DNA of 64,000 bases from Minisyncoccota bacterium (GCA_942491275.1 CALNZI010000007.1:63353-127352); one strand, 5' to 3'. Positions 8,222 to 50,584 are shown, counted from the first letter of the stretch. The notes: generated by a model not told the origin, from the sequence alone. Numbers and translations are program-made.

Positions 8222-8281
8222 GGATCGAACCTACGACCAATCGCTTAACAGGCGACCGCTCTACCGCTGAGCTACCACGGA
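8209..8281 (-). tRNA. tRNA-Asn (anticodon GUU)
   Basis: Reverse complement folds as a cloverleaf: acceptor UCCGUGG/CCACGGA, anticodon loop CUGUUAA, T-loop GGTTCGATCC. Confidence 0.8.
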
Positions 8282-25724: not shown

Positions 25725-26252
25725 ATGTTTTCTAACCCAGAACAAAATGTTGGACAATTGGGATTAAGAGAAGGGATGAAAGTCGCTGATTTTGGGGCGG
25801 GAACCGGAATGTATTCTAAAGCTGCTGGGAAAAGAGTGGGAGAGGAAGGAAAAGTTTATGCTGTTGAAGTTCAGAAAGACTTAGTCAAGAAAATGGAAAA
25901 TGAAATTAAAACTTGGGGGGCAGTTAATATCGAATGTATTTGGGGTGACATCGAAAAAAAGAACGGGACTAAAATTGCCGATCAATCAATGGACGCGGTG
26001 ATTGTTTCTAACGTGTTTTTTCAAGTGGCAGATAAATTAGGCTTAATTGATGAAGTTAAAAGAATATTAAAAGAGAAAGGGAAGGTTTTGTTTATAGACT
26101 GGAGTGATTCTTTTAATGGAATGGGTCCAGCTTTGGAGCATATTATAAAAAAAGAAAAATCCATTGAATTATTTGGGAGTAGGGGTTTTAAGTTTTTAGA
26201 AGATGTAATTGTTTCAGACCATCATTATGGTATAATTTTTATACATGAATAA
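25725..26252 (+). CDS. Class I SAM-dependent methyltransferase
   Basis: Motif I VADFGAGTGMYS. Confidence 0.6.
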   Translation: MFSNPEQNVGQLGLREGMKVADFGAGTGMYSKAAGKRVGEEGKVYAVEVQKDLVKKMENEIKTWGAVNIECIWGDIEKKNGTKIADQSMDAVIVSNVFFQVADKLGLIDEVKRILKEKGKVLFIDWSDSFNGMGPALEHIIKKEKSIELFGSRGFKFLEDVIVSDHHYGIIFIHE

Positions 26253-27543
26253 TTTTCAAACAATTTTATCTGCTATATTTCTCGCATTTTTTATATTTGC
26301 AGTGATGATTTTTTCTGGAATGATAAAAATTGGAGATAATACAAATACTTCAGGAGGGCTGACTGGTAAGGTTGTAATTTGGGGTACCTTGACCGAACCT
26401 AATTTATATAAAGTTTTTGAAATAGCTACAGAAGATCACCAGGATTTAAATATTCGTTACATTAAGAAATCACCCTTGACCTATCAACAAGATTTGATTG
26501 AAGCTTTTGCTTCTGAAAAAGGGCCTGATCTATTTTTTATTACTCCTGATATGATTATCAAAAATAAGGATTTCTTTTATCCGGTACCCTATGAAAGTTA
26601 TCCGGAAAAAGTTTTTAGAGATTCATTTATAGATGGAGCAAATATATTTTTAGCAGAGGATGGAATAATTGGTTTTCCGATTGTAGTGGACCCGATGGTT
26701 CTTTATTACAACAAAAACATGTTGAATGATCAAGGATTAGTTTCTCCTCCAGTTCTTTGGAATGATTTATTTAATTTAAATGAATTGTTAACAAAAAGTG
26801 AAAATGATGGAACTATTTTGGAGAGCATGATTGCTCTGGGAAGATATGACAATATAAATAATTCAAAGGAAATTCTATCAACATTTTTGTTACAAAGTGG
26901 GGATCCGATAGTTGTTCGAGAAGGGAATAACTATGTTTCGGTTTTAGATAAAAAAGCATTGGGGGCAAGTACTTCTCCTTTTAAAACAATACTTACCTTT
27001 ATAATGGAATTTTCTAATCCATCCAATAAAGGTTATTCTTGGAATCGCTCATTGTCTAGTTCTTTTGATATGTTTGTTCGTGGAAAATTGGCTTTTTATC
27101 TAGGGAAATCAAGTGAGTTATTTAAAATTCAATCAACCAATCCAAATTTGAGTTTTGATGTTGCTCCAATTCTTCAAACAAAAAATGTGCCAAAAAGGAC
27201 ATTTGCTGATATATATGCAATTACTGTTAATAAAAAATCACAAAACACCAGTTTAGCTTTTAGTGTTTCTGGATTGTTGAGTTCTAAAGATACTGTAAAA
27301 CATTTCAGTGATACTCTTTCACTTCCTCCGGCAACGAAATTATTACTTTCTGAGAAACCAACGGATCCATATATGTATAGTTTTTATGATTCTGCTATTT
27401 TTTCTCATTCTTGGATTGATCCAAATCCTGTTACAACTAATGCAATTTTTGGTGAATTATTCAACAATGTTTCATCTAATAAATTAGAAATTGACGCAGC
27501 TATTAATAAGGCCCAAGGCCAATTAAGTCAAACCGTTAAATAA
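26245..27543 (+). CDS. Extracellular solute-binding protein (ABC transporter, family 1-like)
   Basis: N-terminal TM/signal; PIVVDPMVLYYNKNMLNDQGLVSPPVLWNDL resembles the sugar-SBP motif. Confidence 0.5.
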   Translation: MNNFQTILSAIFLAFFIFAVMIFSGMIKIGDNTNTSGGLTGKVVIWGTLTEPNLYKVFEIATEDHQDLNIRYIKKSPLTYQQDLIEAFASEKGPDLFFITPDMIIKNKDFFYPVPYESYPEKVFRDSFIDGANIFLAEDGIIGFPIVVDPMVLYYNKNMLNDQGLVSPPVLWNDLFNLNELLTKSENDGTILESMIALGRYDNINNSKEILSTFLLQSGDPIVVREGNNYVSVLDKKALGASTSPFKTILTFIMEFSNPSNKGYSWNRSLSSSFDMFVRGKLAFYLGKSSELFKIQSTNPNLSFDVAPILQTKNVPKRTFADIYAITVNKKSQNTSLAFSVSGLLSSKDTVKHFSDTLSLPPATKLLLSEKPTDPYMYSFYDSAIFSHSWIDPNPVTTNAIFGELFNNVSSNKLEIDAAINKAQGQLSQTVK

Positions 27544-27544: not shown

Positions 27545-27910
27545 ATGAAAAAAATACTAGCATTTCTTTTTAGTTTTATGATCCTTTTAGTTCCTGTGTT
27601 TTTTGTTACAGCTGCAGGGTTAGTACCAGATTGTCCTAATGGATGTAATTTTAATGATTTGATGATTATGATAAACAGGGTAATTAAATTTCTATTATTT
27701 ACCATTGCTACTCCGTTGGCTGCTATAATTTTTGCATATGCTGGATTTCTTTTGATTACTTCAGGGGGAGATCCCGGAAAGAAAACTCAGGCAAAAAAAA
27801 TAATAGGAAATTTATTGATTGGTTATATTATCGCTCTGGCCGCTTGGTTAATTGTGAATACCATTGTTACAGGGTTAGGTTTTACAGGTGATACATTTTT
27901 AGAGAAGTAA
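27545..27910 (+). CDS. TrbC/VirB2-like pilin family protein (paralog 1)
   Basis: Signal peptide, then two hydrophobic helices separated by a short basic loop (FLLFTIATPLAAIIFAYAGFLLITSGGDPGKKTQAKKIIGNLLIGYIIALAAWLIVNTI). This is the VirB2/TrbC topology. Confidence 0.55.
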   Translation: MKKILAFLFSFMILLVPVFFVTAAGLVPDCPNGCNFNDLMIMINRVIKFLLFTIATPLAAIIFAYAGFLLITSGGDPGKKTQAKKIIGNLLIGYIIALAAWLIVNTIVTGLGFTGDTFLEK

Positions 27911-27936
27911 ATTATTAATAGTTGAGTTAAAATAAT

Positions 27937-28410
27937 ATGAAAATTTTAAAAACAAAAAAATATAGCATTTTGAAAAATTTATTAAAATATAGTTTTGTAA
28001 TTGTATTTATTTTCTCTTTGGCAGTTGCTTCTGTTTTTGCAACAACAGACGGTGTAGGGAATACAGGAGGAGATGGAGTTGGGAATAATAATACTGGGAA
28101 TAATAGTGGTGAAATGAATTTAAATATAAACACTACAATTGATAATCCACTGAATGACAAACTTAACGATATTCCTTCTTTTATCCAAGCCATTCTAGAA
28201 ATTGTTTTAACTGTCGGTATTCCAATTGTAACTCTAGCAATTATTTATTCAGGTTTTCTTTTTGTTTCAGCTCAGGGTAGTCCAGAGAAATTAACTAAAG
28301 CCAAGAATACTTTAATGTACACCCTAATTGGGGCAGCTTTATTATTGGGAGCCTTTGTATTAGCAGAGGCAATACAATCAACGGTCGAAGAAATTAAAAC
28401 AACAACATAA
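27937..28410 (+). CDS. TrbC/VirB2-like pilin family protein (paralog 2) with Gly/Asn-rich linker
   Basis: Signal peptide, a GNTGGDGVGNNNTGNNSG low-complexity region, then the two-helix module IPIVTLAIIYSGFLFVSAQGSPEKLTKAKNTLMYTLIGAALLLGAFVLAEAI. Confidence 0.5.
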   Translation: MKILKTKKYSILKNLLKYSFVIVFIFSLAVASVFATTDGVGNTGGDGVGNNNTGNNSGEMNLNINTTIDNPLNDKLNDIPSFIQAILEIVLTVGIPIVTLAIIYSGFLFVSAQGSPEKLTKAKNTLMYTLIGAALLLGAFVLAEAIQSTVEEIKTTT

Positions 28411-28416
28411 TTAATT

Positions 28417-28734
28417 ATGAATGATCCAAAACAAATAACAGATGTTTGTAGTAATGTTAAATTTGATAGTATTGGAAATATTTTTAATTGGGCAAGCTGT
28501 ACTTTAGTAAAATCAATCATTCCTTTTCTGATTACTTTGGCAGTGGTCTCTTTTATTTGGGGAATAATTCAATATTTTTTAAATCCAGATAACGAAGAAA
28601 AACGCAAACAAGGTAAAACTTTTTTACTTTGGGGATTAATTGCGTTATTTGTCATGATTAGCGTTTGGGGATTAGTGAACATCTTCTCTGAGACTTTTCA
28701 TGTTAAAACACTTATTCCACAGCTTTCTCAGTAA
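28417..28734 (+). CDS. Pilin-like two-helix membrane protein (paralog 3)
   Basis: IIPFLITLAVVSFIWGIIQYFLNPDNEEKRKQGKTFLLWGLIALFVMISVWGLVNIF; the same two-helix-plus-basic-loop architecture. Confidence 0.45.
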   Translation: MNDPKQITDVCSNVKFDSIGNIFNWASCTLVKSIIPFLITLAVVSFIWGIIQYFLNPDNEEKRKQGKTFLLWGLIALFVMISVWGLVNIFSETFHVKTLIPQLSQ

Positions 28735-28892
28735 TTCCTTGCTTTTATTGTTGTATTTTTGTGATATAATACAAGTATCGTAAGTTGTTCTTTTTCTATA
28801 AAATATATAGAAATTATTATTAGGTCGTTGTTTTTTATTATTATTAAAATTACGTTTTTTAGATAAAATGTAATTAAATTAAGTTAAATTAT

Positions 28893-29255
28893 ATGAAAAA
28901 AATTATTTCATTGGGTGCTGTTTTAGGAACTTTTCCTTTGGCTGTGTTTGCAGAAGATGCTTTTGGTATTGTTTACACATTAAGTAATCTTCTTAACAAT
29001 TGGATAATTCCATTGTTGATTACTGTTGCAGTTGTTTATTTCATTTGGGGAGTTATTTCCTATATTACAGCTGGAGATGAAGAGAAAAAGAAAACAGGTA
29101 AGACTAAAATCATAAATGGTCTTATTGGATTATTTGTGATTGTTGCTTTCTGGGGAATAATAAGAGTTTTCTCATCAACATTTAATGTTGGACCAGAACA
29201 ATTAAACAATAACGCCATTCCTTGTATTCCTAGCCCAGGCTCCGATAATTGTTAA
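28893..29255 (+). CDS. Pilin-like two-helix membrane protein (paralog 4)
   Basis: Signal peptide plus IIPLLITVAVVYFIWGVISYITAGDEEKKKTGKTKIINGLIGLFVIVAFWGIIRVF. Confidence 0.45.
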   Translation: MKKIISLGAVLGTFPLAVFAEDAFGIVYTLSNLLNNWIIPLLITVAVVYFIWGVISYITAGDEEKKKTGKTKIINGLIGLFVIVAFWGIIRVFSSTFNVGPEQLNNNAIPCIPSPGSDNC

Positions 29256-31258
29256 TTGATATGAATTTTGGACTTATACCAGTTGCTGAAGCAAGTGTAG
29301 TTACTCTGATGAAGAGTATTAATAAGGTTATCATTAACCCTATTATATTGTTTTTATTTGCTTTAGCACTGGCATATTTCCTTTATGGTGTTGCTCAGTA
29401 TTTATTAAATTCTGATAGTGAAGAAATAAAAACTAAAAGTAAATCCCACATGCTCTATGGAGTTATTGGGCTTTTTATTATGGTGGCTGTTTTTGGAATT
29501 ATGAGATTAGTTTTAAATACTGTGGGAGAAAGTAAAACAGCTAAAATTGAAATTGAGGAGAGTGGGGATTATCAAATAACCAATAAAGATACAAATAAAA
29601 ATTATACTTTTATTGGTGATAACGTACTTGATTTAAATAATTATGATCCAACAGGGAGTGGAATTTTTTCTGCCAACGACTTAGACCTTCGTTCAGCTAG
29701 AAATATTGATTTAACGGATGTTAAAACAAACAGAACAACTAATTTTGACGAAAGTCCTTTTAATATAATATATATAGAAAATCCACTTTGTTGGCATGAG
29801 GAAGTCTATGCAACAGCTAATACAGAATATGATTCTATTAAATATGTAAAAAATATAGCAAAAGAACATTACTCTTCTGTTTTGGGAGAGGAAAAAACAC
29901 CCTCAAATTCAGGAATCTTAACTTCTTATGATGCTGAGAATGCAGTTTATCATAGCTGGATGGATGCTAGAGGTCCTAAAAAAGGAGGAACCGACGAGGA
30001 CTGTGTTTTAAAAGTTGATATAGAAAAAACTAAAAAAATATATGATGAGTTACCAATTGATAGTTATGTTAATGATGAGATATTTACTAAACCTCGAGAT
30101 ATGAGTTTGAATCCACCTCCCGAAGATTGGACAGGGAATTTCAGTTCTGATCCTTTGTTCCACAGAGTAATGGCTTCTGGATCTAATCCTCTTCTGGTGA
30201 TAGCTAGAAATCTCGCTATAAAAAATGCTTTTGCTCTTTTGGGAATAGAGATTCAGGAAATTAATGCCATGACCATTGTTTATCCAACAGCTAGTATTTT
30301 AGAAGAAAGTTATACCATTGATCCAAAAACTGGTAATTATGAATATTGGGTAGCCATTGAATCTAAAAAAACAACAACTGAAAGTAATATAACTCTTGAC
30401 CAGTATGCGGAAAAAGTAAAACCTTTTACTAAAACATATGAAAGTGATGATCTTTTCTTAAGAATTGTGGACTATGGAACAAGTACAGAATTAGCTACAG
30501 CTCGTGAAATTGCTTTAAGTAATGCTTTAATGCAAATCAGTTTTGCAGTTTGTGGTGATGGAAAAGATAATGATGGTGATGGTTCTACTGATAAAAATGA
30601 TGCCATGTGCCATCTAGATGGGGATGCTACAAATGATGATTCATATCTTCCCACCTATTATTCAGAAAATATAGTACCTCCGATTGATTTTTCAGGTGGG
30701 GAAATATCTTTAAGTTCTGGAATTTGTAATGATGGTATAGATAATGATGGAGATGAAAAGACTGACATAGAAGATCCTCAATGTCACACAGATGGAAATG
30801 CTGGAAATTCAGCTTCATATGTTCCTAGTTATGAATCAGAAAGTATTATCCCTCCTGTAGACCTGGCTGCTGAAATAGATTGGATAATTGTTCTTGAAGA
30901 AAAACAAATATTTAATGAAGAAACAGGGGAGTATGAATATTGGGTGGCTATAGAAAGTCCTCATACCATGGTGGATGGGGCTTCTCCAGTTTCTCAGAGT
31001 TTCAAAGCTATTCCATTTACTAAAATTTATAAAACTGATGGAACATATTATCGTGTTATTGATTCAGGAGTTGATATTAGCTTAGGTAAAGCTCGAGAAA
31101 TAGCTATCAATAATGCTTTCATCAAGCTAGAAGAAGAAGTGGAAGGGGAATTGGTGGGTGTTCAATATGTAACTATATTAGAAGAAAAACATATTTTTGA
31201 TTCCAAAACTGGCCTCTATGAATATTGGGTTGTCCTCCAGGCTACTAAGAAAAAATAA
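29249..31258 (+). CDS. Pilin-like N-terminal module fused to a 570-aa repeat-rich extracellular domain (paralog 5)
   Basis: N-terminal IINPIILFLFALALAYFLYGVAQYLLNSDSEEIKTKSKSHMLYGVIGLFIMVAVFGIMRL. The C-terminal part has three AREIA(L/I)xNA(F/L)...(I/V)LEE(S/K)xxFDxxTGxYEYWV modules and two CxDGxDNDGDxxTDxxDxxCHxDG(N/D)A Asp-rich (MopE-like) repeats. Confidence 0.5.
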   Translation: MLIDMNFGLIPVAEASVVTLMKSINKVIINPIILFLFALALAYFLYGVAQYLLNSDSEEIKTKSKSHMLYGVIGLFIMVAVFGIMRLVLNTVGESKTAKIEIEESGDYQITNKDTNKNYTFIGDNVLDLNNYDPTGSGIFSANDLDLRSARNIDLTDVKTNRTTNFDESPFNIIYIENPLCWHEEVYATANTEYDSIKYVKNIAKEHYSSVLGEEKTPSNSGILTSYDAENAVYHSWMDARGPKKGGTDEDCVLKVDIEKTKKIYDELPIDSYVNDEIFTKPRDMSLNPPPEDWTGNFSSDPLFHRVMASGSNPLLVIARNLAIKNAFALLGIEIQEINAMTIVYPTASILEESYTIDPKTGNYEYWVAIESKKTTTESNITLDQYAEKVKPFTKTYESDDLFLRIVDYGTSTELATAREIALSNALMQISFAVCGDGKDNDGDGSTDKNDAMCHLDGDATNDDSYLPTYYSENIVPPIDFSGGEISLSSGICNDGIDNDGDEKTDIEDPQCHTDGNAGNSASYVPSYESESIIPPVDLAAEIDWIIVLEEKQIFNEETGEYEYWVAIESPHTMVDGASPVSQSFKAIPFTKIYKTDGTYYRVIDSGVDISLGKAREIAINNAFIKLEEEVEGELVGVQYVTILEEKHIFDSKTGLYEYWVVLQATKKK

Positions 31259-31271
31259 AGTGTAATAAAAA

Positions 31272-31301
31272 AAGCCTCAAGATTTTACCTTGAGGCTTTT
31301 T
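31272..31301 (+). terminator. Rho-independent terminator after the pilin array
   Basis: gcctcaag-attttac-cttgaggc followed by ttttt. Confidence 0.55.
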
Positions 31302-31318: not shown

Positions 31319-31672
31319 TTAGTCAGTAAAAGTGATTGTCACTGTTACTGTTTGATAGTAACATCGAATTTTTAAGTATTCAATGTTATTTCCTATATTA
31401 TGGAAACTTCCATCTCCCCAAATTTTCTCAGGGCCTGGAATAATTTTTCCATTAATTTCATAGAAAGGCTTCACATAATATGCATCACCATTTCCATCTA
31501 GTTCAAAGGGTCGTTTTTTAACTTCGATCGTTTGAACTTCGTCACCTTTGAGGGTGTAAGTGTCTCCAGATGTTAAAAATCCTGGAGGATAAAGAAACAG
31601 AAGAAAAATGATAAAAGAAATAATAAAGATTATCCATCCCCCAAATGGGATCCCTTTTGCACCTTGTTTCAT
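31319..31672 (-). CDS. Small membrane protein, possible NfeD-like partner of the SPFH protein
   Basis: N-terminal TM helix plus a short beta-rich C-terminal domain. Its start overlaps the stop of the upstream SPFH gene by 4 nt. Confidence 0.3.
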   Translation of the reverse strand: MKQGAKGIPFGGWIIFIISFIIFLLFLYPPGFLTSGDTYTLKGDEVQTIEVKKRPFELDGNGDAYYVKPFYEINGKIIPGPEKIWGDGSFHNIGNNIEYLKIRCYYQTVTVTITFTD

Positions 31673-33066
31673 TCCTTACCTCCTTTCTTTATGAAAAGTT
31701 CAAGAATTTTTAAGGCTGAAGGGGCAAGGGTTTCCTTGAAGCTTTTCAACGTTTCTGGAGAAATTGTGACTATATTTTCTTTTATAGTTTTTACCACCTT
31801 GTCTCTTTCAGTTTGAATAGTTTCTCGGGCTTGCTCCAATGAATATCCTAGATCCAGAAATTCTCTTATTCTATTTCTTAGATGTTCTAATTCAAGTTTT
31901 TCCCCACGCATTTGTTGTTCCTCTTTGGCTTGATTATCCGCTTCTTCTGCTACTTTTCCCAGTACTTTAATATTACCTATATTAAGGAGTTGTAATTCTA
32001 TCCCAAGATCTGTAATTTCTAGTTTACCGGAACCTTTTCTGAGAGCGTCAATTTGTTTTCTTCTGCTCTCCACACTATCTTTCAATTTTTTTAATTGAAT
32101 ATTTAGACCAGTGGGATCATTATCAGGATATTTTTTCTTTATTTGATCAATAACCTCCTTTACTTTTGCCCAGTTATCTTTCCCCCAATCTTCTTCGTTA
32201 TTATTGAGTTTTGTAGGTTTTGGTTCCCGGAAATAAAGCATCCAAATCCAAGTCGGAACTTCTTGTGCCTCTTTTGGTTCAATGGGAACCAAAAAATTAT
32301 GAGCTAGTTTCTTAACCAAGACAAAAGTTCCTTCTGCTTGAGATTGATCTAATTCAACCCAAGTATCTGGTCCTTCTTCTTTTCCCATACACCACTCGCG
32401 TATTCTTTCAGTTACTCTTCCAAATAATTGTTCTTTTACGCCTTCTTCTCCTCCTGAGTCTAGATAATTTATTGCTAATCTCGGAATTTGTTGAAAAGCG
32501 AGATGAACAGGAACTTCTGATGCAGCTCTATCGGGGGTTCTGGCAGTTGGTATTGTGACATCATAAGGGATTCTAGTTCTTTTTATAGGAATTACACCAT
32601 ACCATAATCCTCGTAGAGGAATAAAGTGCCATCCTTCTGTTAAAAACTCTCCCGTAATTCTTTCCCCAAAGATTGTTAATTGACCAATATGTGTTGGATC
32701 TGATTCAATCTTTACTAATCCTTCTAGGATTATAGCTACGGATAAGAAGATTATAATTCCACCTATACATTCTACTTCAGAGAATGGAAACAGGAGTATT
32801 ACAATCGTTGAAAGTAATAATAAAAGAATTAGTAATCTTAATGTAATTTTACTATCTTTTTTTAAATTACTAGCAGTCCCAGTTAAGGGAGGATCATTTT
32901 CTATAGTGATAGTAGGATTCTCTGCGAATTCATTATTATCACTAAGAAGTCTATTGGGATTGGTGACTTCACTTTCAATGTCTTCACATTCTTGCTCTCT
33001 GACATTTTTAAATCTTCTTATATTCAAGAATTTAAATTCCCAAAAACTACTTCTTGTTTTTTTCAT
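31669..33066 (-). CDS. SPFH/band-7 (flotillin-like) domain membrane protein
   Basis: TM segment, then GERITGEFLTEGWHFIPLRGLWYGVIPIKRTRIPYDVTIPTARTPDRAASEVPVHLAFQ (SPFH-like), then a long C-terminal coiled coil. Confidence 0.5.
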   Translation of the reverse strand: MKKTRSSFWEFKFLNIRRFKNVREQECEDIESEVTNPNRLLSDNNEFAENPTITIENDPPLTGTASNLKKDSKITLRLLILLLLLSTIVILLFPFSEVECIGGIIIFLSVAIILEGLVKIESDPTHIGQLTIFGERITGEFLTEGWHFIPLRGLWYGVIPIKRTRIPYDVTIPTARTPDRAASEVPVHLAFQQIPRLAINYLDSGGEEGVKEQLFGRVTERIREWCMGKEEGPDTWVELDQSQAEGTFVLVKKLAHNFLVPIEPKEAQEVPTWIWMLYFREPKPTKLNNNEEDWGKDNWAKVKEVIDQIKKKYPDNDPTGLNIQLKKLKDSVESRRKQIDALRKGSGKLEITDLGIELQLLNIGNIKVLGKVAEEADNQAKEEQQMRGEKLELEHLRNRIREFLDLGYSLEQARETIQTERDKVVKTIKENIVTISPETLKSFKETLAPSALKILELFIKKGGKE

Positions 33067-33297: not shown

Positions 33298-33372
33298 GGC
33301 CCCATCGTCTAACGGTTAGGACATCGGGTTTTCAATCCGGTAATCAGAGTTCGATTCTCTGTGGGGTCACCA
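33298..33372 (+). tRNA. tRNA-Glu (anticodon UUC), CCA encoded
   Basis: Acceptor GGCCCCA/TGGGGTC, anticodon stem-loop TCGGG-TTTTCAA-TCCGG, T-arm CAGAGTTCGATTCTCTG, 3' ACCA. Confidence 0.85.
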
Positions 33373-34855
33373 ACGAAGAAGGATCAATCAAATATTGTTG
33401 ATATAGGCTGTAAATAGGGCTTAGTTTCTTAGTTCCAAATTTCTCTCCAGAAAATTCAATATTTTCTTCAAATATAATCTTTTGGAACTGCAATCTTTTT
33501 TCTGGTTGTTTTCCAAGGTCTACCCAGGTCTTAGATGTTTCTCTAACAAAATTAAAACAATATTCAAGGGCTTCTTCCATATTAAATCCTTCTTCTATCT
33601 TTTCTTGAATCAAAGACCTTTGTAAGGCTATTTTTTGATTAATTTTATTTTTTTGATAAGAAAAATCATCATTATCATAAACTTTAGATTCATGTAACTC
33701 AAAAATTCTTTCTTTTTGTTTTTCAAGGTTTGTAATTTCATTTCTAATTTTTTGATTATTACCATGAAAGCTCTTACAGTTATTTTTCCAAATATCCATA
33801 ACTATTTTTTTAAAAGCATTCTCATATTCAACACTAGGAGTTATTTCATTTAAAAATTCCACAAACAATTGTTCAAAGTTTTCTTTGGGTATAAATTTAC
33901 TATGAGGACAATCTTGTTTGTGATGGTGGTAATAAGAATACTTTTTACCAGTACAACTAGTGGAGGCACTTCCTGTTAACGGCTTAGTACAAAATTTACA
34001 GATAGCTAAACTACGAAGTGGAAATTTATCATTAATCTTTTTATGTGGAATATTTCTACGGGTTTTTCCTTTGGGCTGACATTGGTAAAATAGATGTTCA
34101 TCAATAATAGGTTCGAACTTGCCTTTAGCTTCTATACCCCAAGCTTTAATGATTCCAGCATACAAAGGATTCTTGATTATCTTTTCAATTAATTGAGGTA
34201 TAGCAGAATTCCCTCGCTTGGTAGTAAAACCTTGTTTATTTATGTATTCAGCTAACGATTTATAAGTATAAGTACCTTTTGCGTATTCCTCGAAGATAAG
34301 GCGTATAAATGGGGCAAATTTAGGGTCTAAAGATAGGTTGTCTCCTTTTTGTAATCTAGTATAACCAATAGGTGCTGGCCATACCCATACTCCTTGTTTA
34401 AGTCTTTCTCTCATTCCGTTAACACTCCTTTCAGTTCTCACGTTATTATCAAATTCAGCAAAACCAGAAAGCATAACTTCCATAAGTTTACCCGAAGGAC
34501 TATCATCAATCTTTTCTGATACAGAGCGAATTTCAGTTCCGTACTTTTTTAGTTTTTGTTTAACTATTGCATAGTCAGTTTGATTACGAGAGAATCTATC
34601 TATCTTATAAACAATAAAAGAAGAAATTTTATTTTTCTTTTCTGAACAAAAACTAATAGCTTTCATAAATTCTGTTCGGTTGGCTGTTTTTGCTGATTCT
34701 CCTTTCTCTATAAAAATTTTAAGAATATTTATATTTTCTTTTTCAGCATACTCCTTACAGATTCGTTCTTGAGAATCAAGACTAGTACCTTCTATCTGTT
34801 CGTGAGAAGAAACTCTTACATAAATTATTCCATTTTCTTTTTCAATTTTCTCCAT
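33344..34855 (-). CDS. Large serine recombinase
   Basis: MEKIEKENGIIYVRVSSHEQ (catalytic Ser), YKIDRFSRN, a recombinase domain and Cys-rich zinc-ribbon region. Its 3' end overlaps the 3' end of tRNA-Glu. Start moved to the internal Met (ORF track starts at 34942). Confidence 0.8.
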   Translation of the reverse strand: MEKIEKENGIIYVRVSSHEQIEGTSLDSQERICKEYAEKENINILKIFIEKGESAKTANRTEFMKAISFCSEKKNKISSFIVYKIDRFSRNQTDYAIVKQKLKKYGTEIRSVSEKIDDSPSGKLMEVMLSGFAEFDNNVRTERSVNGMRERLKQGVWVWPAPIGYTRLQKGDNLSLDPKFAPFIRLIFEEYAKGTYTYKSLAEYINKQGFTTKRGNSAIPQLIEKIIKNPLYAGIIKAWGIEAKGKFEPIIDEHLFYQCQPKGKTRRNIPHKKINDKFPLRSLAICKFCTKPLTGSASTSCTGKKYSYYHHHKQDCPHSKFIPKENFEQLFVEFLNEITPSVEYENAFKKIVMDIWKNNCKSFHGNNQKIRNEITNLEKQKERIFELHESKVYDNDDFSYQKNKINQKIALQRSLIQEKIEEGFNMEEALEYCFNFVRETSKTWVDLGKQPEKRLQFQKIIFEENIEFSGEKFGTKKLSPIYSLYQQYLIDPSSLVTPQRIEL

Positions 34856-34859
34856 ATAA

Positions 34860-35051
34860 TTACTTTCCCACATCCTCCTCATTAAGTCCATATACCCTAA
34901 TGGGATATTTGGAACTAGTTTTCTTTTCAATAAAGGATTCAAGGGCTAATTGTCCTAAAGAATACAAAGAACGCCTTATTTTAATAAGTTCTTTATCAGG
35001 TATATTTTTCAGACGATGGTCTGTTTTTCTTAATTCTTCAAGACTAATCAT
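34860..35051 (-). CDS. Small ORF between Rep and recombinase (possible regulator or directionality factor)
   Basis: 63 aa; overlaps the Rep stop and immediately precedes the recombinase start. Confidence 0.3.
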   Translation of the reverse strand: MISLEELRKTDHRLKNIPDKELIKIRRSLYSLGQLALESFIEKKTSSKYPIRVYGLNEEDVGK

Positions 35052-35817
35052 TTTTCTTTTTAAATATTCTTAATCGACCTCTACCAAGCCAACTGGTAAG
35101 ATACTCTCTATCTACTATTGGTTCATTTTGATTCATTCCGTGTTGATCTAATATAAATCCAATTCCTGCATAGGAAACATATTTCATTACATTTGGTCTT
35201 TCTATATTACGAGAAGCGACATAGCACTTTTGATTTTTTAATCTTGGATCTATAAATGCTTTTGCCATATATTTTGATAAATAAAATGACAATTTTTCAT
35301 CTCCATCAGTTTCCTTTATAAATACATAACCCCTTGACCAAAGTCCGGCAATCGTTCTAGTTTTCCGTTCCAATAAAAATACTTCCTCGGGTAACCCCCA
35401 GAAGAGAGCGTGATAATGAACTGCTCCACGTTTTTGAAATTCTGGAACGCAGATGTACCTGAAAATTTTTCCGTATTTGTAGCGGAGAGACTGGACAAAA
35501 GACGAGAGATCTTTATAGGCTCTTTTAAGGTCTGTGAGGTTTTCTCCGTAGGTAAGAGTAATAAGTAAAGGTCTTGTAAGTCCTCCGAGGTTAGAAGCAA
35601 CGATGCGTCTAAAAGCCAATTCCGCGCGTCTAGCATTATCTTGTCTTTTCCCCAACTTCCTTTCCGATAAATTATCTTCTCCATTAACTCCCAAATCCTT
35701 ATCATCAGATTTCCTTTCCCCGCCATTAATAATTGTTCGTTCGTATGTAATGATGTCTTTTTCATACTCATAAAGTTCTAATGTATTACCATAACTAATA
35801 ATCTTGTTGTAACCCAT
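35044..35817 (-). CDS. HUH-superfamily rolling-circle replication initiator (phiX174 gpA-like, two-tyrosine)
   Basis: HUH motif GAVHYHALFWG and a two-tyrosine motif SFYLSKYMAK (compare gpA YVAKYVNK). Confidence 0.7.
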   Translation of the reverse strand: MGYNKIISYGNTLELYEYEKDIITYERTIINGGERKSDDKDLGVNGEDNLSERKLGKRQDNARRAELAFRRIVASNLGGLTRPLLITLTYGENLTDLKRAYKDLSSFVQSLRYKYGKIFRYICVPEFQKRGAVHYHALFWGLPEEVFLLERKTRTIAGLWSRGYVFIKETDGDEKLSFYLSKYMAKAFIDPRLKNQKCYVASRNIERPNVMKYVSYAGIGFILDQHGMNQNEPIVDREYLTSWLGRGRLRIFKKKND

Positions 35818-36331
35818 ATAAATTAAGTTATCTTATTAAGTGAGTGAGTAAGCAAGTCACTCACTAGGGCTCAGATTCACCGAAGTCCAGCCACTTGCTT
35901 GGGAAATTCAGAATTCACTTCTAAAAAGATAAAGATCGACCACAAGAAAACCCCGCGACTCATAAAAAGTCCGCGGGGGTTTTCATCCTTGTAAATACTC
36001 AAAAACCTTTCTCTGTTGAAGATTTTGGTTATTTTCTCTATTAATTTTTGATTACATCTATATTCCTCCATACCTTTTTTAGGTACAAAAAAACCGCCTG
36101 AAATAGACAACGTAAAATTAGATTTCTTTAAATTGTTTTCTTTCTAGTCGGAGGAATTAAGTTGCAGAGCATTGCTTATGTACACATACTAGTTGCTATG
36201 GGTCTTTCCCATTCGCTTATTTGTATTCCAAGGTGCTCTTCTGTATTAATTTAAGTATCTACCTATTTATAAATTATGTCAAGTTTTAATTTAATGTTCA
36301 CAAAAAGGTAGTTATATTGTATAATTAATAA

Positions 36332-37336
36332 ATGCAATTATATATAGATTCTAATATATATTTAGAATATTTTAGAGAAAACTCTGCCGAAAGATTAACA
36401 CCCTTAAAAGAACTTCTGAAATTACTTAAAAAAGAAGAAGTTGTATTACTTTTACCTAGTCAAACCAGGCAAGAGTATTTTAGAAATAGAAGAAAAATAG
36501 CAGAGATAACAAGGTTATCTCTAATAAGACAAAGTAATATTTCTTCTTTCATTCCAGCTGTTCTTGATAAAGGAAATAAAGAAGTAAAGGATGTTTTAAG
36601 TAAAAAGAAAGATTTAATTACTTCATATAAAAAATTAATTAAAAAATATGATAAAGAAGTGGAAAAAGAAAAAACTGATGCGGATTTATTAATAAATGAA
36701 CTTTTTTTAAAATTTGCAAAAGTAATTAAAGAAACTGATGAAATCATAGCAAGTGCATATCGTAGATATATGAAAGGTAACCCTCCTAGAAAAAATGATC
36801 ATTCATATGGCGATGCATTAATATGGGAGACTCTTTTAAAAGAAGGGGCAAATGACGATTTGGTTTTAATTACAAAAGATGGTGATTTCATTGAAAAACA
36901 TAAAGGCAAACCTAAAATTAACCAATTTTTATTTGTAGAATGGAGAATCAAAACAAAGAAGAAAAAGAAGGTTATTTTATACAAATCACTTGCAGAATTT
37001 GTAAACACTTTTACAAAAAAAGAAATTTTAAAAAAGGAAATAATAGAAAAAGAGAATAGTTCTGTATTTAATGCAAGCATAACAAAAAGTTTATCTTACA
37101 ATACACAAGGAACACCAACGATTAGTGCTTCAAATTGTAGAATTTCAGATACAACGAGCCAAACAATAACAAAAATTACAAGAAATGGACTTATAGCAGA
37201 AGCAGACCTTGACTCTGATCCTCTTAGAATTAGCGCTTGCCAAAATTATGATTCGCTAGGAAAGATCTGTTCTTTTTGTGGAAATATTTATCATTATGAA
37301 CAAGAATATTGCTTTAATTGTGGTATAAAATTATAA
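36332..37336 (+). CDS. PIN-like domain protein (DUF4935-like) with C-terminal zinc ribbon
   Basis: N-terminal LYIDSNIYLEY...GDALIWETLLKEG...LVLITKDGDF resembles PIN-like acidic-residue spacing; C-terminal CSFCGNIYHYEQEYCFNCG. Confidence 0.4.
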   Translation: MQLYIDSNIYLEYFRENSAERLTPLKELLKLLKKEEVVLLLPSQTRQEYFRNRRKIAEITRLSLIRQSNISSFIPAVLDKGNKEVKDVLSKKKDLITSYKKLIKKYDKEVEKEKTDADLLINELFLKFAKVIKETDEIIASAYRRYMKGNPPRKNDHSYGDALIWETLLKEGANDDLVLITKDGDFIEKHKGKPKINQFLFVEWRIKTKKKKKVILYKSLAEFVNTFTKKEILKKEIIEKENSSVFNASITKSLSYNTQGTPTISASNCRISDTTSQTITKITRNGLIAEADLDSDPLRISACQNYDSLGKICSFCGNIYHYEQEYCFNCGIKL

Positions 37337-37498
37337 AATCTCTAATGTTTAAATATAGTGACAAACTAATAAAAGAAACGCAAAAAGTCTTTAAAGAAGA
37401 AGAGGGCTTAGATATTTCAAAGGAGACCGCGGTTGAATATATGGATCAATTATCGGGTTTGTTTTTAGCATTTTCAAAAAGACAAAAATAATTAGTAT

Positions 37499-39316
37499 TT
37501 ATTTACTATAATCTAAAACTATCTCATCTCCAGCAATATTACGGATTTTTATTTTAAATTTATTTGTTGGCAATTCGTATACCCCCTTGATTTTGTCTTT
37601 AATCTCTGCTTTATCCTCTAAATCCAAGTTACTAGTCCAAACACCACTTTTCTTTAATTCTGTATCAAACTGTAATGATTCAATAAGCTCTAAACCATTC
37701 TCACTGATTTTAACAGCTTTTGTTTTATCTTTAGTTAAAGTCCCTTTTTTAACTTTCTTGGCATTATATTCATCTATTTTGGCTTTAAGATAAGGACTAA
37801 AGAACTTTTTAATTTTAACATTGCATCCTTTGCCATCTTTTTTAAGTTCAATACCAACTGAATCCTCTGGGAAAAACATATCTCTTTTGTCAGCCAATAA
37901 ATCATCTAAATTAATCAACTCAACTAAAATACTTGTCTTGCCAGAATTTTTTATTTCTTTATTTAAATAACACTGGTCTATATCTAAATCCTTAAAAGCA
38001 TAGATAATATTAACTTTACTCGCTCCTTTTTCTGTTTCTTCTAGAGCGTAAATTTCTTCCAAGACAACATCTAGTAATTCTTTTGTTAGTTTCTTATCAA
38101 TACCAATAAATTTAACTGGCTCAAAACTACCTTTTTCTTTAATAATTCCACCATCCCAAAATTCCCCCAGTTCAAGTTCGACTCTTGGTCTAAAGCCCTC
38201 AATCAAAGAGAACATCTTTTGAGTTGTTTGAGCTGGGTTTCTAAATAATCTTATACCATCTTTTATTTTTAAAATATCAAAATCCACTTTTCTTTTTACT
38301 AACCCATCTCTAGTTTCTTGAATAGCATTTATTCCAACATCACAAACAATAAATTTTCTATTCAAATCACTAGCAACTTTTGCAGTTGTCCCACTTCCAA
38401 CAAAAAAATCTGCAACAATCATTCCTTCACTGGTGGCTGTATCAATAATTCTTCTTAATAACTCTATTGGTTTTTGTGTATTATATTGAGTTTTTTCTTT
38501 TGATTGAACATTTTCAAGTGGTATATCCCAAACATCATCAATAGGTATTTCTTCTTTGAAATATTTTTTACCTCCTCGAACTAATTTGTATTTTTTTCCA
38601 TTTTCATCTTTTAAATTATATTTGGATTCAGTAAATTCGCTTACCTTTTTTAAAATTGGACTAAAATAATATTCTTTTGATTTTCCATAATGATAAATAT
38701 TATCGTGCTTACGAGCATATCGGTCTTCGGGGGCTCTACTGCTTGTGTAATGCCAAATAATTTCATTTATAAAATTCTCTTCTCCAAAAACCTCGTCCAT
38801 CATAACCTTCGCATATTGTCCTATATGCCAATCCAAATGGATATAGATGCTAGCTTTTTCACTCATAATCTCTCTAATAGCCAATAAACGCTCATAAAGC
38901 CAGTTTAAATAGTCCTCTTTCTGCCAAATGTCACCATACATAATCTCTTCACCAATACCATTATCTTCATTTTCAAATTGAGTTTTATTACCATTTCTTA
39001 AAAAGATTTTTTTTGCATAATTAGCTCCACTAGCAAATGGCGGGTCAATATATACCAAATCAACTTTTATATTTTTTGATTTTAAATAAGCACAGGCAGA
39101 TAAAGTATCTCCATATAAAAACAAATTTTTAAAATCAGCATTAATTTCTTTTTGCTTATTCACTAATTTCTTTTTTTCTTTTTGTTTTATCTCTTCAATA
39201 ACTTCTGTTTCAAAAAGTTGCATTTCAATATTTTTACTTGGAAGTAATCGCCCTTGATAGTTTAATAGGGCTTGTCCTTTGGCTGGTGTGATATTGTATG
39301 ATTTTGGTTTTTGCAT
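37499..39316 (-). CDS. mod: Type III restriction-modification Mod subunit-like DNA methyltransferase (beta-class N6A/N4C)
   Basis: DPPF motif IV (DLVYIDPPFASGANY) lies before motif I (IVADFFVGSGTTAKVA), i.e. beta-class order. The protein is 605 aa. Confidence 0.75.
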   Translation of the reverse strand: MQKPKSYNITPAKGQALLNYQGRLLPSKNIEMQLFETEVIEEIKQKEKKKLVNKQKEINADFKNLFLYGDTLSACAYLKSKNIKVDLVYIDPPFASGANYAKKIFLRNGNKTQFENEDNGIGEEIMYGDIWQKEDYLNWLYERLLAIREIMSEKASIYIHLDWHIGQYAKVMMDEVFGEENFINEIIWHYTSSRAPEDRYARKHDNIYHYGKSKEYYFSPILKKVSEFTESKYNLKDENGKKYKLVRGGKKYFKEEIPIDDVWDIPLENVQSKEKTQYNTQKPIELLRRIIDTATSEGMIVADFFVGSGTTAKVASDLNRKFIVCDVGINAIQETRDGLVKRKVDFDILKIKDGIRLFRNPAQTTQKMFSLIEGFRPRVELELGEFWDGGIIKEKGSFEPVKFIGIDKKLTKELLDVVLEEIYALEETEKGASKVNIIYAFKDLDIDQCYLNKEIKNSGKTSILVELINLDDLLADKRDMFFPEDSVGIELKKDGKGCNVKIKKFFSPYLKAKIDEYNAKKVKKGTLTKDKTKAVKISENGLELIESLQFDTELKKSGVWTSNLDLEDKAEIKDKIKGVYELPTNKFKIKIRNIAGDEIVLDYSK

Positions 39317-39320
39317 AAAA

Positions 39321-42092
39321 TTATAATTTTTTTACCTCATTTTTTAATTTACTAATAAAGTTTGTAAAATCGTTATCTTCATTTTCGTCCACAAAGCAAA
39401 CATAATTGAAATTGGGATTATGTTTTTTAAAATCATTCAACATAAACCGCTCTTTTTGTTTAAAATCATCATCGTAGTAAATCTTGCCTTTTGTTTCAAT
39501 TATCAAGACCTTTTCAATCATTCTACCTTTTCTTTTGAGAATCAGGAAATCAGGAGTATAAACACCTCGGGGAGTTTGAACCCAAAAACTCTGCAATTCA
39601 TTGTTTTTAAAACCATTAAAATAAACTTCTAGAGCAGCGAGCTCATTCATTTTTAACATTTCAGACAAAGCATTTATTTCAAAATTACTATCTACTTTAT
39701 AAGGCACATAATTAAAACTGATATTTTGGGAATCTAAATTTTCAGCATCCGCTTCTAAATCTTCAGGATGTTTTCTAAAAAGTTCTATGTTGCGATTATC
39801 AATTTTAGGCATAAATTTTGCCAACGCTCCACTTGAAGAATAAAGAGCCATTGTAGGATTTTTTGTTTGCCATTCAAGTAATTCAATCTCGACATCTTTT
39901 GTTATTATTTCTTTTTTATATTCAACTTCTTCCATTAAAAATGAAGCGAGGTATTTTATAATATTATCAACTTCCAAGTTGGGATTAGATTCAATCCAAT
40001 TAAGTTCCTTCTGTATTTCAGTAAAGATTTTCTTTAATTTAGTATGATAATTTTCTAACAAGTGAATCTCACTAAATTTTCCAAGGGTTGCTTTTGCTAA
40101 ATCATAAATAAAGTCGTTAAAAAAATAATCAGTAATTTCAAATTTTGAAATTTTTTCTTCCACTTCACGGCTTATACCAGTTTTACCAATTCTGCCTTTT
40201 ATTATTCTTTCATCATATTTATATTTTTCTTTTACATCCTTAAAGTTAAATTTATTTAAATTGCTGACCGCTGTCTTTTTTAAAAGAATTTTGTATTTAG
40301 TTTCAACTTGCTTGTATCTCAATTTGCCAAGTTTGGGTTTCCTTATCTTAACAGAAATTTCTGGCTGTGAACCAAATTTCAAATCTGAAATACTCAAGTC
40401 ATAATTTTCTCTTAATTCAGAGTCTAGTGTTTTGTAGTTTTCTTTTTCCAAATAAATCAAAGCTTTCTCTTTTTTTGCATCAATAACTTCTCGCAAGCAC
40501 CGGCAAGTTGTTTGTAGAACAAAATTTTTGGTGGTTTTTTGTCGGGGTAATACAACAGCAGTTAAACTCTTACAATCCCAACCTTCTGTGCCAATCGCTA
40601 CGAGCAAAATAACTCTCTTGTCAGAGTAAGGTTTATCTAAATTATTAAATACAGCCAAACTTTCTTTTGGTATCTCATACTGCTTGTTTTCTTTCCCATT
40701 TGTATAAAATTTAAATATTTCAGACTCCTTGTTTTTCCTTTTTGACCTATACCAATCTTGAATCACTGGTAATATCTTTTCATTTAATACCTTAATAGAT
40801 GGACAATAAAAAACAATTTTGCTTTTTGTATCGTTGCTGTATGTAATATCAAAATTATTAAAGAAATCAGTCAGAGCTTGTTTAATAAACAAATCCTCTT
40901 TTACTTCAACTTTTTTAATCTCTGGGATTTTTAAAAACCTACCTATTCCTTGATTTAAGTAATAGTTATAAACTATATCTTGAATTTGATTTAATTTTAT
41001 CTCATCATCTCCAATTTTTACCTTATGCTTAACATAAGGAGTGCCAGAAAGTCCAAGGACAGAAATAATATTTTTATGCTGATCTAAAATATTAACTGCC
41101 TTTCTTAATGCTTTTTCTTTTTTCTCGGCATTTACTCCATAACTATGGTGAACTTCATCTAGTATTACGCCTAGATGAGAAATCTGAGATAATTTTTCTC
41201 TTAATTCATTCAACTTTAAAATCTCACTAATTTTTTTCTCATCATAATACAAACTGTCTTTCTCAACAAAAATTTTGTCTTTATCCTCATATTTTTCAAG
41301 CACAACTTTTTCGGCATTAGTAATAAAAACCATACCAAATTTTTTGGTTTGAAAGATACGATTTACCTTTTCTAAATTTGGATTATTACCTTGTAGTTTG
41401 TCTTTCCTTTGAGAACTTAAAGCGTCTAAAATTTCAATCTGAATTATTTGCTTTAATTTATGAGCTTCTTTGTCTGGAAATATCCATTCGGGATTAAAAT
41501 TCTTTATAGTTTGTAAAGATGGAAGAATTGCTGTTTTAGATGCAGACGGAGCTAAAACAATAAAATTATGCGCAAACCTTTTATCGTTTTTGTATATGCT
41601 AGCAAAATATAAATCTAAGTATATAAAACAAGCCATTAAGAATGTCTTACCTGCCCCCATTGGTAAACTGAATAAATAGTTTGGGTAGTTGTAATTATGT
41701 AAAAGTTCATCTAAAACTTTATCCCAGTTTGTTTTTTCGCTTTTTGGATCGTTTGCTAATTTTTTTTGAAGATTATGAACGCTATTTTCTTGAAAAAATT
41801 GATTCAAAAAATGGGTTGTATAATTACTGCCAAAATTGTGAAAGTTATCATAGCCCTTTGCTATTTCTTCATCATATAAAAACCCAGCTCGAATAATATC
41901 TGATAGTTTTTTATTATTACCAACAAATTTTAACCAAAGATAAACTTCAATAGCTTGTTTTTGTGGTTCTCTTAATTTATTTTCTACTTCAATATATTTA
42001 ATTAAGTTACCTACAATTGACTGATTCTTAGATTTTTCTTGGGTTACCCAGCTAGATGCCTTATTTTCTATTAAATTAAAAATTGTGTTCAT
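39321..42092 (-). CDS. res: Type III restriction enzyme Res subunit (SF2 helicase plus C-terminal PD-(D/E)xK nuclease)
   Basis: Walker A LPMGAGKT, DEVH (ILDEVHHS), SGTP, QTTCRCLR, and C-terminal YTPDFLILKRKGRMIEKVLIIETKG. Confidence 0.75.
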   Translation of the reverse strand: MNTIFNLIENKASSWVTQEKSKNQSIVGNLIKYIEVENKLREPQKQAIEVYLWLKFVGNNKKLSDIIRAGFLYDEEIAKGYDNFHNFGSNYTTHFLNQFFQENSVHNLQKKLANDPKSEKTNWDKVLDELLHNYNYPNYLFSLPMGAGKTFLMACFIYLDLYFASIYKNDKRFAHNFIVLAPSASKTAILPSLQTIKNFNPEWIFPDKEAHKLKQIIQIEILDALSSQRKDKLQGNNPNLEKVNRIFQTKKFGMVFITNAEKVVLEKYEDKDKIFVEKDSLYYDEKKISEILKLNELREKLSQISHLGVILDEVHHSYGVNAEKKEKALRKAVNILDQHKNIISVLGLSGTPYVKHKVKIGDDEIKLNQIQDIVYNYYLNQGIGRFLKIPEIKKVEVKEDLFIKQALTDFFNNFDITYSNDTKSKIVFYCPSIKVLNEKILPVIQDWYRSKRKNKESEIFKFYTNGKENKQYEIPKESLAVFNNLDKPYSDKRVILLVAIGTEGWDCKSLTAVVLPRQKTTKNFVLQTTCRCLREVIDAKKEKALIYLEKENYKTLDSELRENYDLSISDLKFGSQPEISVKIRKPKLGKLRYKQVETKYKILLKKTAVSNLNKFNFKDVKEKYKYDERIIKGRIGKTGISREVEEKISKFEITDYFFNDFIYDLAKATLGKFSEIHLLENYHTKLKKIFTEIQKELNWIESNPNLEVDNIIKYLASFLMEEVEYKKEIITKDVEIELLEWQTKNPTMALYSSSGALAKFMPKIDNRNIELFRKHPEDLEADAENLDSQNISFNYVPYKVDSNFEINALSEMLKMNELAALEVYFNGFKNNELQSFWVQTPRGVYTPDFLILKRKGRMIEKVLIIETKGKIYYDDDFKQKERFMLNDFKKHNPNFNYVCFVDENEDNDFTNFISKLKNEVKKL

Positions 42093-42180
42093 ATCTATAA
42101 AATTATTGAGGTATTAAGTAATACCTCAAACCATTTTTCATAACAATGATATTATAAAACAAAACCACTAAATTTCCTAA

Positions 42181-42232
42181 ATTCCCCTATATTCTCTACA
42201 ATCGAGTTCCAACTGCGTCCCGTTTGGGTCAC
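42181..42232. repeat. Left copy of a ~50-bp imperfect direct repeat
   Basis: tcccctatattctctacaatcgagttccaa...cccgtttgggtcac; 28/30 identical to 43326-43355 over the core, with a similar tail. Confidence 0.6.
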
Positions 42233-42305
42233 TGCACATTTATAACCTTATTTGTTAAGGTTTATTCTAGTTACAATTTTATATTTTTCATGGTAATATA
42301 TAATC

Positions 42306-42379
42306 GATGTGGTAGCCAAGTGGTAAGGCATTTACTCGCAAGGTAAATATCGTAGGTTCAATTCCTACCCACATCTCCA
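42306..42379 (+). tRNA. tRNA-Cys (anticodon GCA), CCA encoded
   Basis: Acceptor GATGTGG/CCACATC, anticodon stem-loop TTTAC-TCGCAAG-GTAAA, T-arm GTAGGTTCAATTCCTAC. Confidence 0.85.
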
Positions 42380-48600: not shown

Positions 48601-48631
48601 CCGCAAACATATTAAAAAAACGCCTGCTATT

Positions 48632-50221
<1,590 letters not shown>

Positions 50222-50223
50222 CC

Positions 50224-50439: not shown

Positions 50440-50584
50440 TTCATTCCTGCATGCGTCAGGAATGTCGTGCATGAATACCACAGCCGCTTTTCGCAATCGA
50501 CCGGTTTCCGCTACACTCGCATGCCACCGTGCATTCGAATCCGTCGTTCCGCTTCCATCTTCATATTTATCAAAAAGGATGTCG

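Follow-up and report, generated by a model that had tools for sequence, protein, structure and literature searches.

Five tandem genes of the VirB2-like pilin family

A considerable part of bacterial diversity belongs to the Patescibacteria, which seem to spend their lives attached to other microbes; their type IV secretion system (T4SS) is essential in the one species tested. Here, we describe a tandem array of five genes, g1 to g5, on the plus strand of a stretch of 64,000 nucleotides (nt) from a Minisyncoccota bacterium (GCA_942491275.1 CALNZI010000007.1:63353-127352; hereafter the window). A reading of this DNA from its sequence alone had claimed five consecutive, diverged pilin paralogs of the VirB2/TrbC type at this locus, and the open reading frames (ORFs) are indeed present as described, all of them on the plus strand and all encoding a helix-loop-helix module (Table 1). 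Hydropathy segments reveal in each protein two long hydrophobic stretches with a short lysine-rich loop between them. The divergence was likewise borne out, with pairwise identities of 49% (g3-g4), 39% (g3-g5), 36% (g4-g5), and 30% (g1-g2), and g1 to g5 are true paralogs of one two-helix membrane module that fall into two subgroups. An N-terminal segment resembling a signal peptide is found in g1, g2, and g4 and is lacking in g3 and g5. The AlphaFold2 (AF2) model of g4, built on an alignment of database homologs, shows a signal helix followed by a helical hairpin (helices 23-59 and 63-96; mean predicted local distance difference test score [pLDDT] of 75.5), and an alignment of g4 orthologs shows P15 and A20 at the predicted cleavage motif to be invariant and the AFA-type motif to be kept.

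The family assignment is carried by profile searches with the curated models PF18895 (T4SS_pilin; gathering threshold 26.6 bits) and PF04956 (TrbC/VirB2; 27.9 bits). Four of the five proteins score above the PF18895 cut-off (g1 with 40.7, g2 with 31.8, g3 with 38.3, and g4 with 48.2 bits), while g5 stays below it with 18.4 bits. PF04956 is passed by g2 (28.9 bits), approached by g1 at 22.0 bits, and not matched by g3, g4, or g5. The proposed VirB2/TrbC-like identity thus held up in these searches, and orthologs of g4 are also labelled "pilin" by NCBI. For g5, membership was assessed by a comparison of profiles with hhalign, in which the g5 family (46 homologs) matched the g4 family (40 homologs) with 99.0% probability and an E-value of 5e-18 over 86 columns. 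This alignment begins exactly at the mature N-terminus of g4, which argues that g5 is a true family member with a short leader in place of the signal peptide. Among NCBIfam models, NF045849 (Mycoplasma Mbov_0395 pilin-like) is the best match for four of the five proteins and the second for g5, behind a model of acidic repeats (see below), with 23.5, 28.6, 33.3, 35.0, and 23.5 bits for g1 to g5, all below the cut-off of 40 bits. The NF045849 proteins of Mycoplasma integrative and conjugative elements are likewise small, two-helix, and VirB2-like and belong to a T4SS of wall-less or monoderm cells, whereas the array has no such element as its context.

With the VirB2, TrbC, and TraA pilins of gram-negative bacteria, the array proteins share a signal peptide, two hydrophobic helices, and a basic connecting loop. 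These classical pilins are small, carry no appended domains, and are encoded beside virB3 and virB4; unlike them, the array consists of five paralogs, one of them a fusion of 665 amino acids (aa), and has no linked machinery. A relationship to type IV pili is not indicated: the class III signal (G/F-x-x-x-E) is not present in the leaders of g1 to g5, which are either of Sec type (MKK...AFA) or the short xFxIIPVAEA when read from the sequences, and the NCBIfam scan gave for ComGF no more than a noise match of 13 bits.

Table 1. Features of the window, with positions counted from its first nucleotide (residues of g5 in the numbering of the 665-aa form).
Feature	Position	Strand	Description
g1	27545-27910	+	121 aa; VirB2-like pilin paralog; signal-peptide-like N-terminus, Cys pair, C-terminal two-helix module
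g2	27937-28410	+	157 aa; VirB2-like pilin paralog; signal peptide, Gly/Asn-rich linker, C-terminal two-helix module
g3	28417-28734	+	105 aa; VirB2-like pilin paralog; without canonical signal peptide; short N-tail with two Cys
g4	28893-29255	+	120 aa; most canonical pilin; Sec-type signal peptide ending AFA, DEEKKK loop, C-terminal Cys-Cys tail
g5	29249-31258 (from TTG); 29261-31258 (from ATG)	+	669 aa from TTG, 665 aa from ATG; pilin module and extracellular domain of ~570 aa
g5 pilin module	29291-29536	+	residues 11-92; highly conserved across 46 homologs; AF2 helices 13-49 and 54-90
g5 A repeat	29753-30013	+	residues 165-251; beta-alpha-beta-beta, conserved Cys pair
g5 B1 repeat	30149-30370	+	residues 297-370; repeat HMM, AF2, DNA repeat D1
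g5 B2 repeat	30446-30964	+	residues 396-434 and 533-568; split HMM matches
Insert within g5 B2	30563-30856	+	~98 aa; two acidic double-disulfide repeats; low confidence in AF2
g5 B3 repeat	31037-31249	+	residues 593-663; C-terminal B domain kept in nearly all long homologs
Extended -10 element TGATATAAT	28762-28770	+	in the 158-nt gap between g3 and g4 (28735-28892)
Leader motif ATTATTATTAGGTCGTT	28813-28829	+	upstream of g4; conserved block ATTATTATnAGGTCGTT in the intergenic alignment
Intrinsic terminator	31269-31301	+	13-bp stem and T run; between g5 and convergent minus-strand genes
SBP_bac_8-like gene	26245-27543	+	membrane-anchored; Pfam PF13416, 48.7 bits; stop 1 nt before g1 start
Large serine recombinase	33344-34942	-	mobile island
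Rolling-circle Rep	35044-35817	-	mobile island
PIN-domain protein	36332-37336	+	mobile island
N6/N4 DNA methylase	37499-39316	-	mobile island
ResIII/endonuclease protein	39321-42092	-	mobile island

The outer domain of g5

The ATG-initiated form of g5 is identical to a database protein (P0001). Instead of the signal peptide of g4, it starts with a very short conserved leader of the form xFxIIPVAEA|S (residues 1-11, 29261-29293), in which P7, A9, E10, and A11 vary little or not at all among homologs. Its end is AxA-like, but a Sec signal peptide would need more length and charge, and the leader may instead mark a dedicated processing site or represent an N-terminal tail that is conserved.

Behind the pilin module, the AF2 model of g5 (built from 46 homologs; mean pLDDT 72, domains above 90) places a small beta hairpin, a disordered linker (residues 111-158), and four beta-alpha-beta-beta domains. 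These domains were also recovered by hidden Markov models (HMMs) built from 89 repeat copies and belong to two types. The A type (~93 aa) has an invariant cysteine pair and the consensus SPF..Y....LCW...TEY.A...AR..YL...YD...K.YYAW.DARAP...G...DC.L., while the B type (~73 aa) follows FYRV.DSG....AR.IAI.NAL...ILEEKY....TGNYDYWVAIE. In the single A repeat of g5, strands 177-186, 215-224, and 229-239 and helix 189-208 are modelled with pLDDT above 90, and C177 is invariant in homologs. The A and B HMMs match each other, which fits one shared fold. The fusion of the fifth pilin to an extracellular repeat domain of about 570 aa could thus be confirmed by both methods, with A, B1, B2, and B3 as its parts. 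The threefold internal repeat that had been noticed in it corresponds to the three B repeats, which are real and visible even in the DNA as three 80-nt copies of 64-70% identity, but it is an undercount since the related A repeat makes four copies of one fold.

B2 is split by the insert listed in Table 1 and is uninterrupted in the closest g5 homologs (P0002-P0008). The model for acidic double-disulfide repeats (NF033662) matches g5 in two stretches and barely passes its threshold (41.1 bits at a cut-off of 41); this repeat is the sole source of matches to non-pilin proteins (P0048-P0056). Other relatives of g5 carry different extracellular inserts, among them a Trp/Asp/Gly-rich module, a Gln/Ser-rich stretch, and a Kazal domain that is annotated in one homolog (P0044, precomputed Pfam) and was read from the sequence in another (P0196).

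When the whole g5 model was compared to the PDB with Foldseek, nothing was found at E<=1e-3. The best local matches to the repeats, dodecin (PDB 3onr) and the secreted Helicobacter protein HP1454 (4kzs), have the same order of secondary structure elements and are not significant (template modelling score of 0.59 on the target, probability 0.63, E-values of 0.3-0.4). The conserved cysteine pair and the PF..Y and YDYWVA motifs of the g5 repeats are absent from both proteins, and no function like that of flavin- or calcium-binding dodecins is indicated. An exhaustive HMMER search of 1.84 billion cluster representatives with a fragment comprising A and B1 retrieved 33 clusters only, and every full-length member of these has a g5-type pilin module at its start. 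Both in this database search and in all related loci, the outer domain is only ever joined to a pilin module. This combination of a pilin with a variable, disulfide-rich outer domain is a concrete and plausible candidate for the part of these cells that touches the host.

A fixed set of five orthologs behind gyrA

Scanning one genome per species, we found 46 related loci, all of them in metagenome-assembled genomes of the Paceibacteria type, including Nomurabacteria, Vogelbacteria, Parcubacteria, and RAAC4_OD1_1 (many of the corresponding third-party annotation records bear the generic label "Saccharibacteria"). The gene order is the same in nearly all of them, with a Lactamase_B-like gene, a gene of ~106 aa, gyrA, a methyltransferase gene, and a gene for a solute-binding protein (SBP) of the SBP_bac_8 type followed by g1 to g5. 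Exactly five ORFs with a pilin module are present in 37 of the 46 loci and four to seven in the remainder. At each position of the array, the best match is the corresponding gene of the window, so that one-to-one orthologs can be followed through ~45 species genomes, and the identity of their modules to those of the window (~40-75%) is comparable to that of the methyltransferase and SBP genes. The pilus-subunit diversification that the sequence-only reading had suggested for this array stands insofar as the paralogs have diversified; these comparisons of sequences indicate that the process is ancient and fixed. Such a fixed set with one-to-one orthologs argues for distinct structural roles of the five proteins and not for interchangeable variants.

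What does vary between species is the load that individual members carry. In about half of the loci, g5 measures ~105 aa and consists of the pilin module alone, while the remaining g5 proteins have one to five A and one to three B domains. Over all orthologs, between 0 and 6 copies of the repeat are present. Elsewhere it is g1 or g2 that is enlarged, by a long stretch inserted behind the signal peptide and ahead of the module, reaching lengths of up to 569 aa for g1 (L030; 456 aa in L032) and 613 aa for g2 (L040). Three g1 orthologs of ~320 aa (L026, L027, and L029) hold in their extension an A-type domain like those of g5, which suggests domain exchange between array paralogs. Given the N-terminal position of this cargo in g1 and g2 and its C-terminal position in g5, extra domains are joined to whichever terminus is predicted to be outside.

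The SBP gene is found directly upstream of g1 in essentially all 46 loci. In the window, its stop codon precedes the start of g1 by 1 nt and its own start is overlapped by the methyltransferase gene, so that these upstream genes may be co-transcribed with the array. No gene for an ATP-binding cassette (ABC) permease or ATPase was found nearby in the window or in the annotation of the closest syntenic relative (L001). The SBP-like protein is a possible operon partner of the pilins and may also be a functional part of the set.

Within the array, the gap between g3 and g4 contains the extended -10 element TGATATAAT. Of 38 related loci, 31 have a TGnTAnAAT motif at the corresponding position, and its TG and TATAAT columns are invariant in an intergenic alignment of 17 sequences. 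We consider this element a likely internal promoter for g4 and g5, and it was missed by a generic promoter scan that found no good -35 element. Further downstream in the g4 leader, the motif ATTATTATTAGGTCGTT corresponds to the conserved block ATTATTATnAGGTCGTT of the alignment, and many relatives have a small CCTGC-GGTC-GCAGG hairpin in this gap that is absent from the window. RNAalifold detected no consensus structure on the alignment of g4 leaders. Together, the -10 element, the hairpin of the relatives, and the ATTATTATnAGGTCGTT block could possibly form a regulatory element.

Previous work had already provided a broad view of such arrays. A search of 3,035 Patescibacteria genomes with PF18895 and PF04956 identified 441 VirB2 arrays of 2 to 11 genes in 383 assemblies, with a mean identity of 25% and a maximum of 54% between members (Quinonero-Coronel et al. 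2025, PMC12102498). Pilin genes were near virB4 in only 1,135 of 1,948 pilin-positive assemblies (PMC12102498), so that arrays away from virB4 are already implicit in the published numbers. Like the published arrays, that of the window belongs to PF18895 (with weak matches to PF04956), consists of divergent paralogs in tandem whose identities fall within the reported range, and comes from a monoderm phylum. A six-pilin array in Southlakia epibionticum lies inside the T4SS gene cluster and is essential (Wang et al. 2023, PMC10633639; also PMC12857230), whereas that of the window lies outside any such cluster, behind gyrA, the methyltransferase gene, and the SBP gene. According to a review from 2025, a monoderm T4SS bearing a pilus would be without precedent. 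Neither PMC12102498 and PMC10633639 nor this review mention pilins fused to large extracellular domains, a set of five orthologs behind gyrA, or an internal promoter. The array as such is thus of a kind known for Patescibacteria; new are the fixed set of five orthologs behind gyrA, methyltransferase, and SBP genes in ~45 Paceibacteria species genomes, the g5 outer domain with its variable number of repeats that is fused to pilins only, and the conserved extended -10 element before g4.

Possible roles of the array and its surroundings

We favor the reading, which we consider fairly probable, that the locus is the Paceibacteria form of the VirB2-like arrays of Patescibacteria and encodes a set of T4SS pilins with g5 as a minor, adhesin-bearing subunit. 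In the membrane, the hairpins would expose both termini to the outside and keep the lysine-rich loop inside, a topology suggested by the positive charge (Lys/Arg) of this loop and by the confinement of cysteine pairs and acidic disulfide repeats to the terminal parts. For this step, g1, g2, and g4 would use a cleaved Sec signal peptide, and g3 and g5 would rely on translocation of their short N-terminal tails. A monoderm-type T4SS encoded elsewhere in the genome, with homologs of VirB4, VirB6, VirB3, and VirB8, would then extract the hairpins from the membrane and build a pilus-like filament or an extension of the channel. As the most canonical member with a conserved promoter of its own and without cargo, g4 is the likely bulk subunit, a role from which g5 would be barred by its 570-aa load. 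Instead, g5 would be a low-copy subunit at the tip or on the shaft that shows its disulfide-stabilised, probably calcium-binding repeats to the host surface and would serve as contact or specificity element, a role that falls to VirB5 or to separate adhesins in other T4SSs. In species with N-terminal extensions of g1 or g2, these would take over the load-bearing part. The likeness of g5 to the VirB5 tip protein or to the tip complexes of type IV minor pilins and PilY1 lies in this proposed role of a low-copy contact at the filament end, and the systems would also have in common a small main subunit with several minor ones encoded together. In sequence and fold, there is no relation, and g5 is itself a hairpin of the VirB2 type and not a separate tip protein.

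A T4SS elsewhere in the genome is plausible on the indirect evidence of RAAC4_OD1_1, which has the same array (L038) and appears among the VirB4-positive entries in Table S1 of PMC12102498. The virB4 genes of Paceibacteria are mostly found near dnaA and dnaN (PMC12102498).

Several observations weigh against a role as T4SS pilins. In the low-GC part of the window, a scan of nearly all ORFs with 90 aa or more gave no T4SS ATPase, channel gene, or other T4SS family, in agreement with the earlier statement that no VirB4 or VirD4 gene is in view. Around the array of L001, the precomputed Pfam annotation lists housekeeping genes alone and no T4SS gene over a distance of 10 kb. The flanking ORFs of at least 250 aa in the related loci were clustered, and the 10 cluster representatives that were scanned include no T4SS ATPase; they comprise ClpB, IF-2, a P-type ATPase, thioredoxin-reductase-like proteins, a recombinase, and unknowns. 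To our knowledge, neither a Patescibacterium nor a monoderm-type T4SS has been observed with a pilus. A sequence-profile search of the PDB with the g4 orthologs gave chance membrane matches and no pilin. Foldseek with the g4 model returned nothing at E<=1e-3 and only generic helical hairpins, without a conjugative pilin among the top 50; helical hairpins are so simple a fold that this outcome carries no information for or against a pilin. A canonical signal peptide is missing in g3 and g5, which have only a short N-terminal tail, and the division into a major g4 and a minor g5 is one that we infer from protein size and the promoter. Finally, the tight coupling of the SBP gene to g1 could point to a different membrane complex.

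This last point leads to the main rival explanation, in which the hairpins are not filament subunits but two-helix surface anchors, perhaps in a complex with the SBP-like protein that binds or imports host-derived molecules independently of a T4SS. The translational coupling of the array to the SBP gene in all 46 loci, the lack of T4SS genes near the array in the window and in the examined flanks of related loci, and the absence of a specific structural tie to pilins would all fit this explanation, as would extensions at whichever end is predicted to be outside, whether N-terminal in g1 and g2 or C-terminal in g5. However, the proteins have profile homology to PF18895 and PF04956, and in Saccharibacteria, the homologous arrays form part of the T4SS cluster and are essential, as is the T4SS. 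Three of the five proteins are without cargo, which would be odd for mere anchors, and the SBP comes without an accompanying ABC permease or ATPase. On balance, we regard anchoring as unlikely but not negligible.

A bolder version of the pilin hypothesis starts from the five-fold layer symmetry of solved conjugative pili, which the number of paralogs might, speculatively, mirror. The five hairpins would then form one hetero-pentameric layer as a tip or priming complex in place of the missing VirB5, with exchangeable host-binding domains on the outward termini (those of g5 in the window and of g1 or g2 in other species), and the locus would be a host-range determinant of Paceibacteria. We think this improbable.

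Divergent tandem paralogs have also been read as a repertoire of pilins of which one is expressed at a time, serving antigenic or phase variation or host-range switching, as in Bartonella and Anaplasma, and this idea has been raised for Patescibacteria (PMC12102498). The strong differences between g5 outer domains of different species and a serine recombinase 2 kb downstream of the array could be seen in its favor. Yet each paralog has a stable ortholog in a fixed order across ~45 species, with module identities of 40-75% like those of neighbouring housekeeping genes, and the recombinase is part of an island next to tRNA-Glu that L001 lacks. The array sequence itself contains no homopolymer tracts, no high-identity or other switch repeats, and no flanking inverted repeats in the style of invertible segments. 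We consequently rejected phase variation, so that the phase-variable surface display envisaged in the sequence-only reading finds no support, and consider variation or switching of any such kind quite improbable. Distinct roles of the paralogs would alter the weight of the published "antigenic variation" idea, at least for Paceibacteria.

That g1 to g5 are unrelated small membrane proteins such as holins or bacteriocin-immunity proteins, matching pilin profiles through hydrophobic composition only, seems extremely improbable: they are short, dominated by two hydrophobic helices, and weakly match many membrane families below threshold, and the fold search was non-specific, but four independent scores exceed the curated PF18895 cut-off, non-hydrophobic features are conserved (the AFA cleavage motif, the DEEKKK loop, and the C-terminal cysteine pair), the location is syntenic in the core genome rather than in a phage or bacteriocin context, and neither PHROGs (no match for any of the five at E<=0.01, on which grounds a phage or holin origin was rejected) nor the holin and immunity families of Pfam and NCBIfam (noise-level matches far below the cut-offs) gave the competing assignment that had been named as an alternative from the start. 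Even if none of the functional readings holds, the locus would still be a correctly annotated member of a known family.

Downstream of g5 and convergent to it, a gene for a membrane protein of 465 aa (31669-33066, minus strand) has no Pfam match and looks SPFH/band-7-like by eye after a transmembrane segment; homologs with 22-44% identity occupy the same position downstream of the array in seven related loci (L007, L010, L021, L023, L030, L031, and L038). It is adjoined by a gene for a protein of 117 aa without any match (31319-31672, minus strand). A mobile island follows at 33298-42379 between tRNA-Glu (33298-33372) and tRNA-Cys (42306-42379), with the five genes given in Table 1. The island is missing from L001, and we therefore rejected its serine recombinase, Rep, PIN, and restriction-modification genes as parts of the system; RAAC4_OD1_1 has a serine recombinase at the corresponding place.

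At ~46.75 kb, the GC content of the window jumps from ~31% to ~60%. The high-GC part (~46700-64000) encodes a P-type ATPase, LptD, SurA, PdxA, and KsgA/RsmA, and lptD-surA-pdxA-ksgA is a diderm proteobacterial arrangement that is impossible in a Patescibacterium and implies that the window or its source contig of 131.5 kb is chimeric or concatenated. The high-GC segment was thus probably joined to Patescibacterial DNA in one of these two ways.

At the other end of the window lie two possible defence genes, one (1385-2749, plus strand) for a protein whose C-terminal domain matches Shedu SduA (28.5 bits at a cut-off of 27) and the other (3460-4101, minus strand) for a Schlafen/AlbA_2 protein. 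They are followed by an ORF-poor stretch (4.1-6.5 kb) with two Rfam matches above the gathering score, a LOOT RNA (4574-4700, minus strand; 76.7 bits) and a SAM riboswitch (5037-5137, minus strand; 48.3 bits), and by a second serine recombinase gene (6542-8221, plus strand) next to tRNA-Asn (8209-8281).

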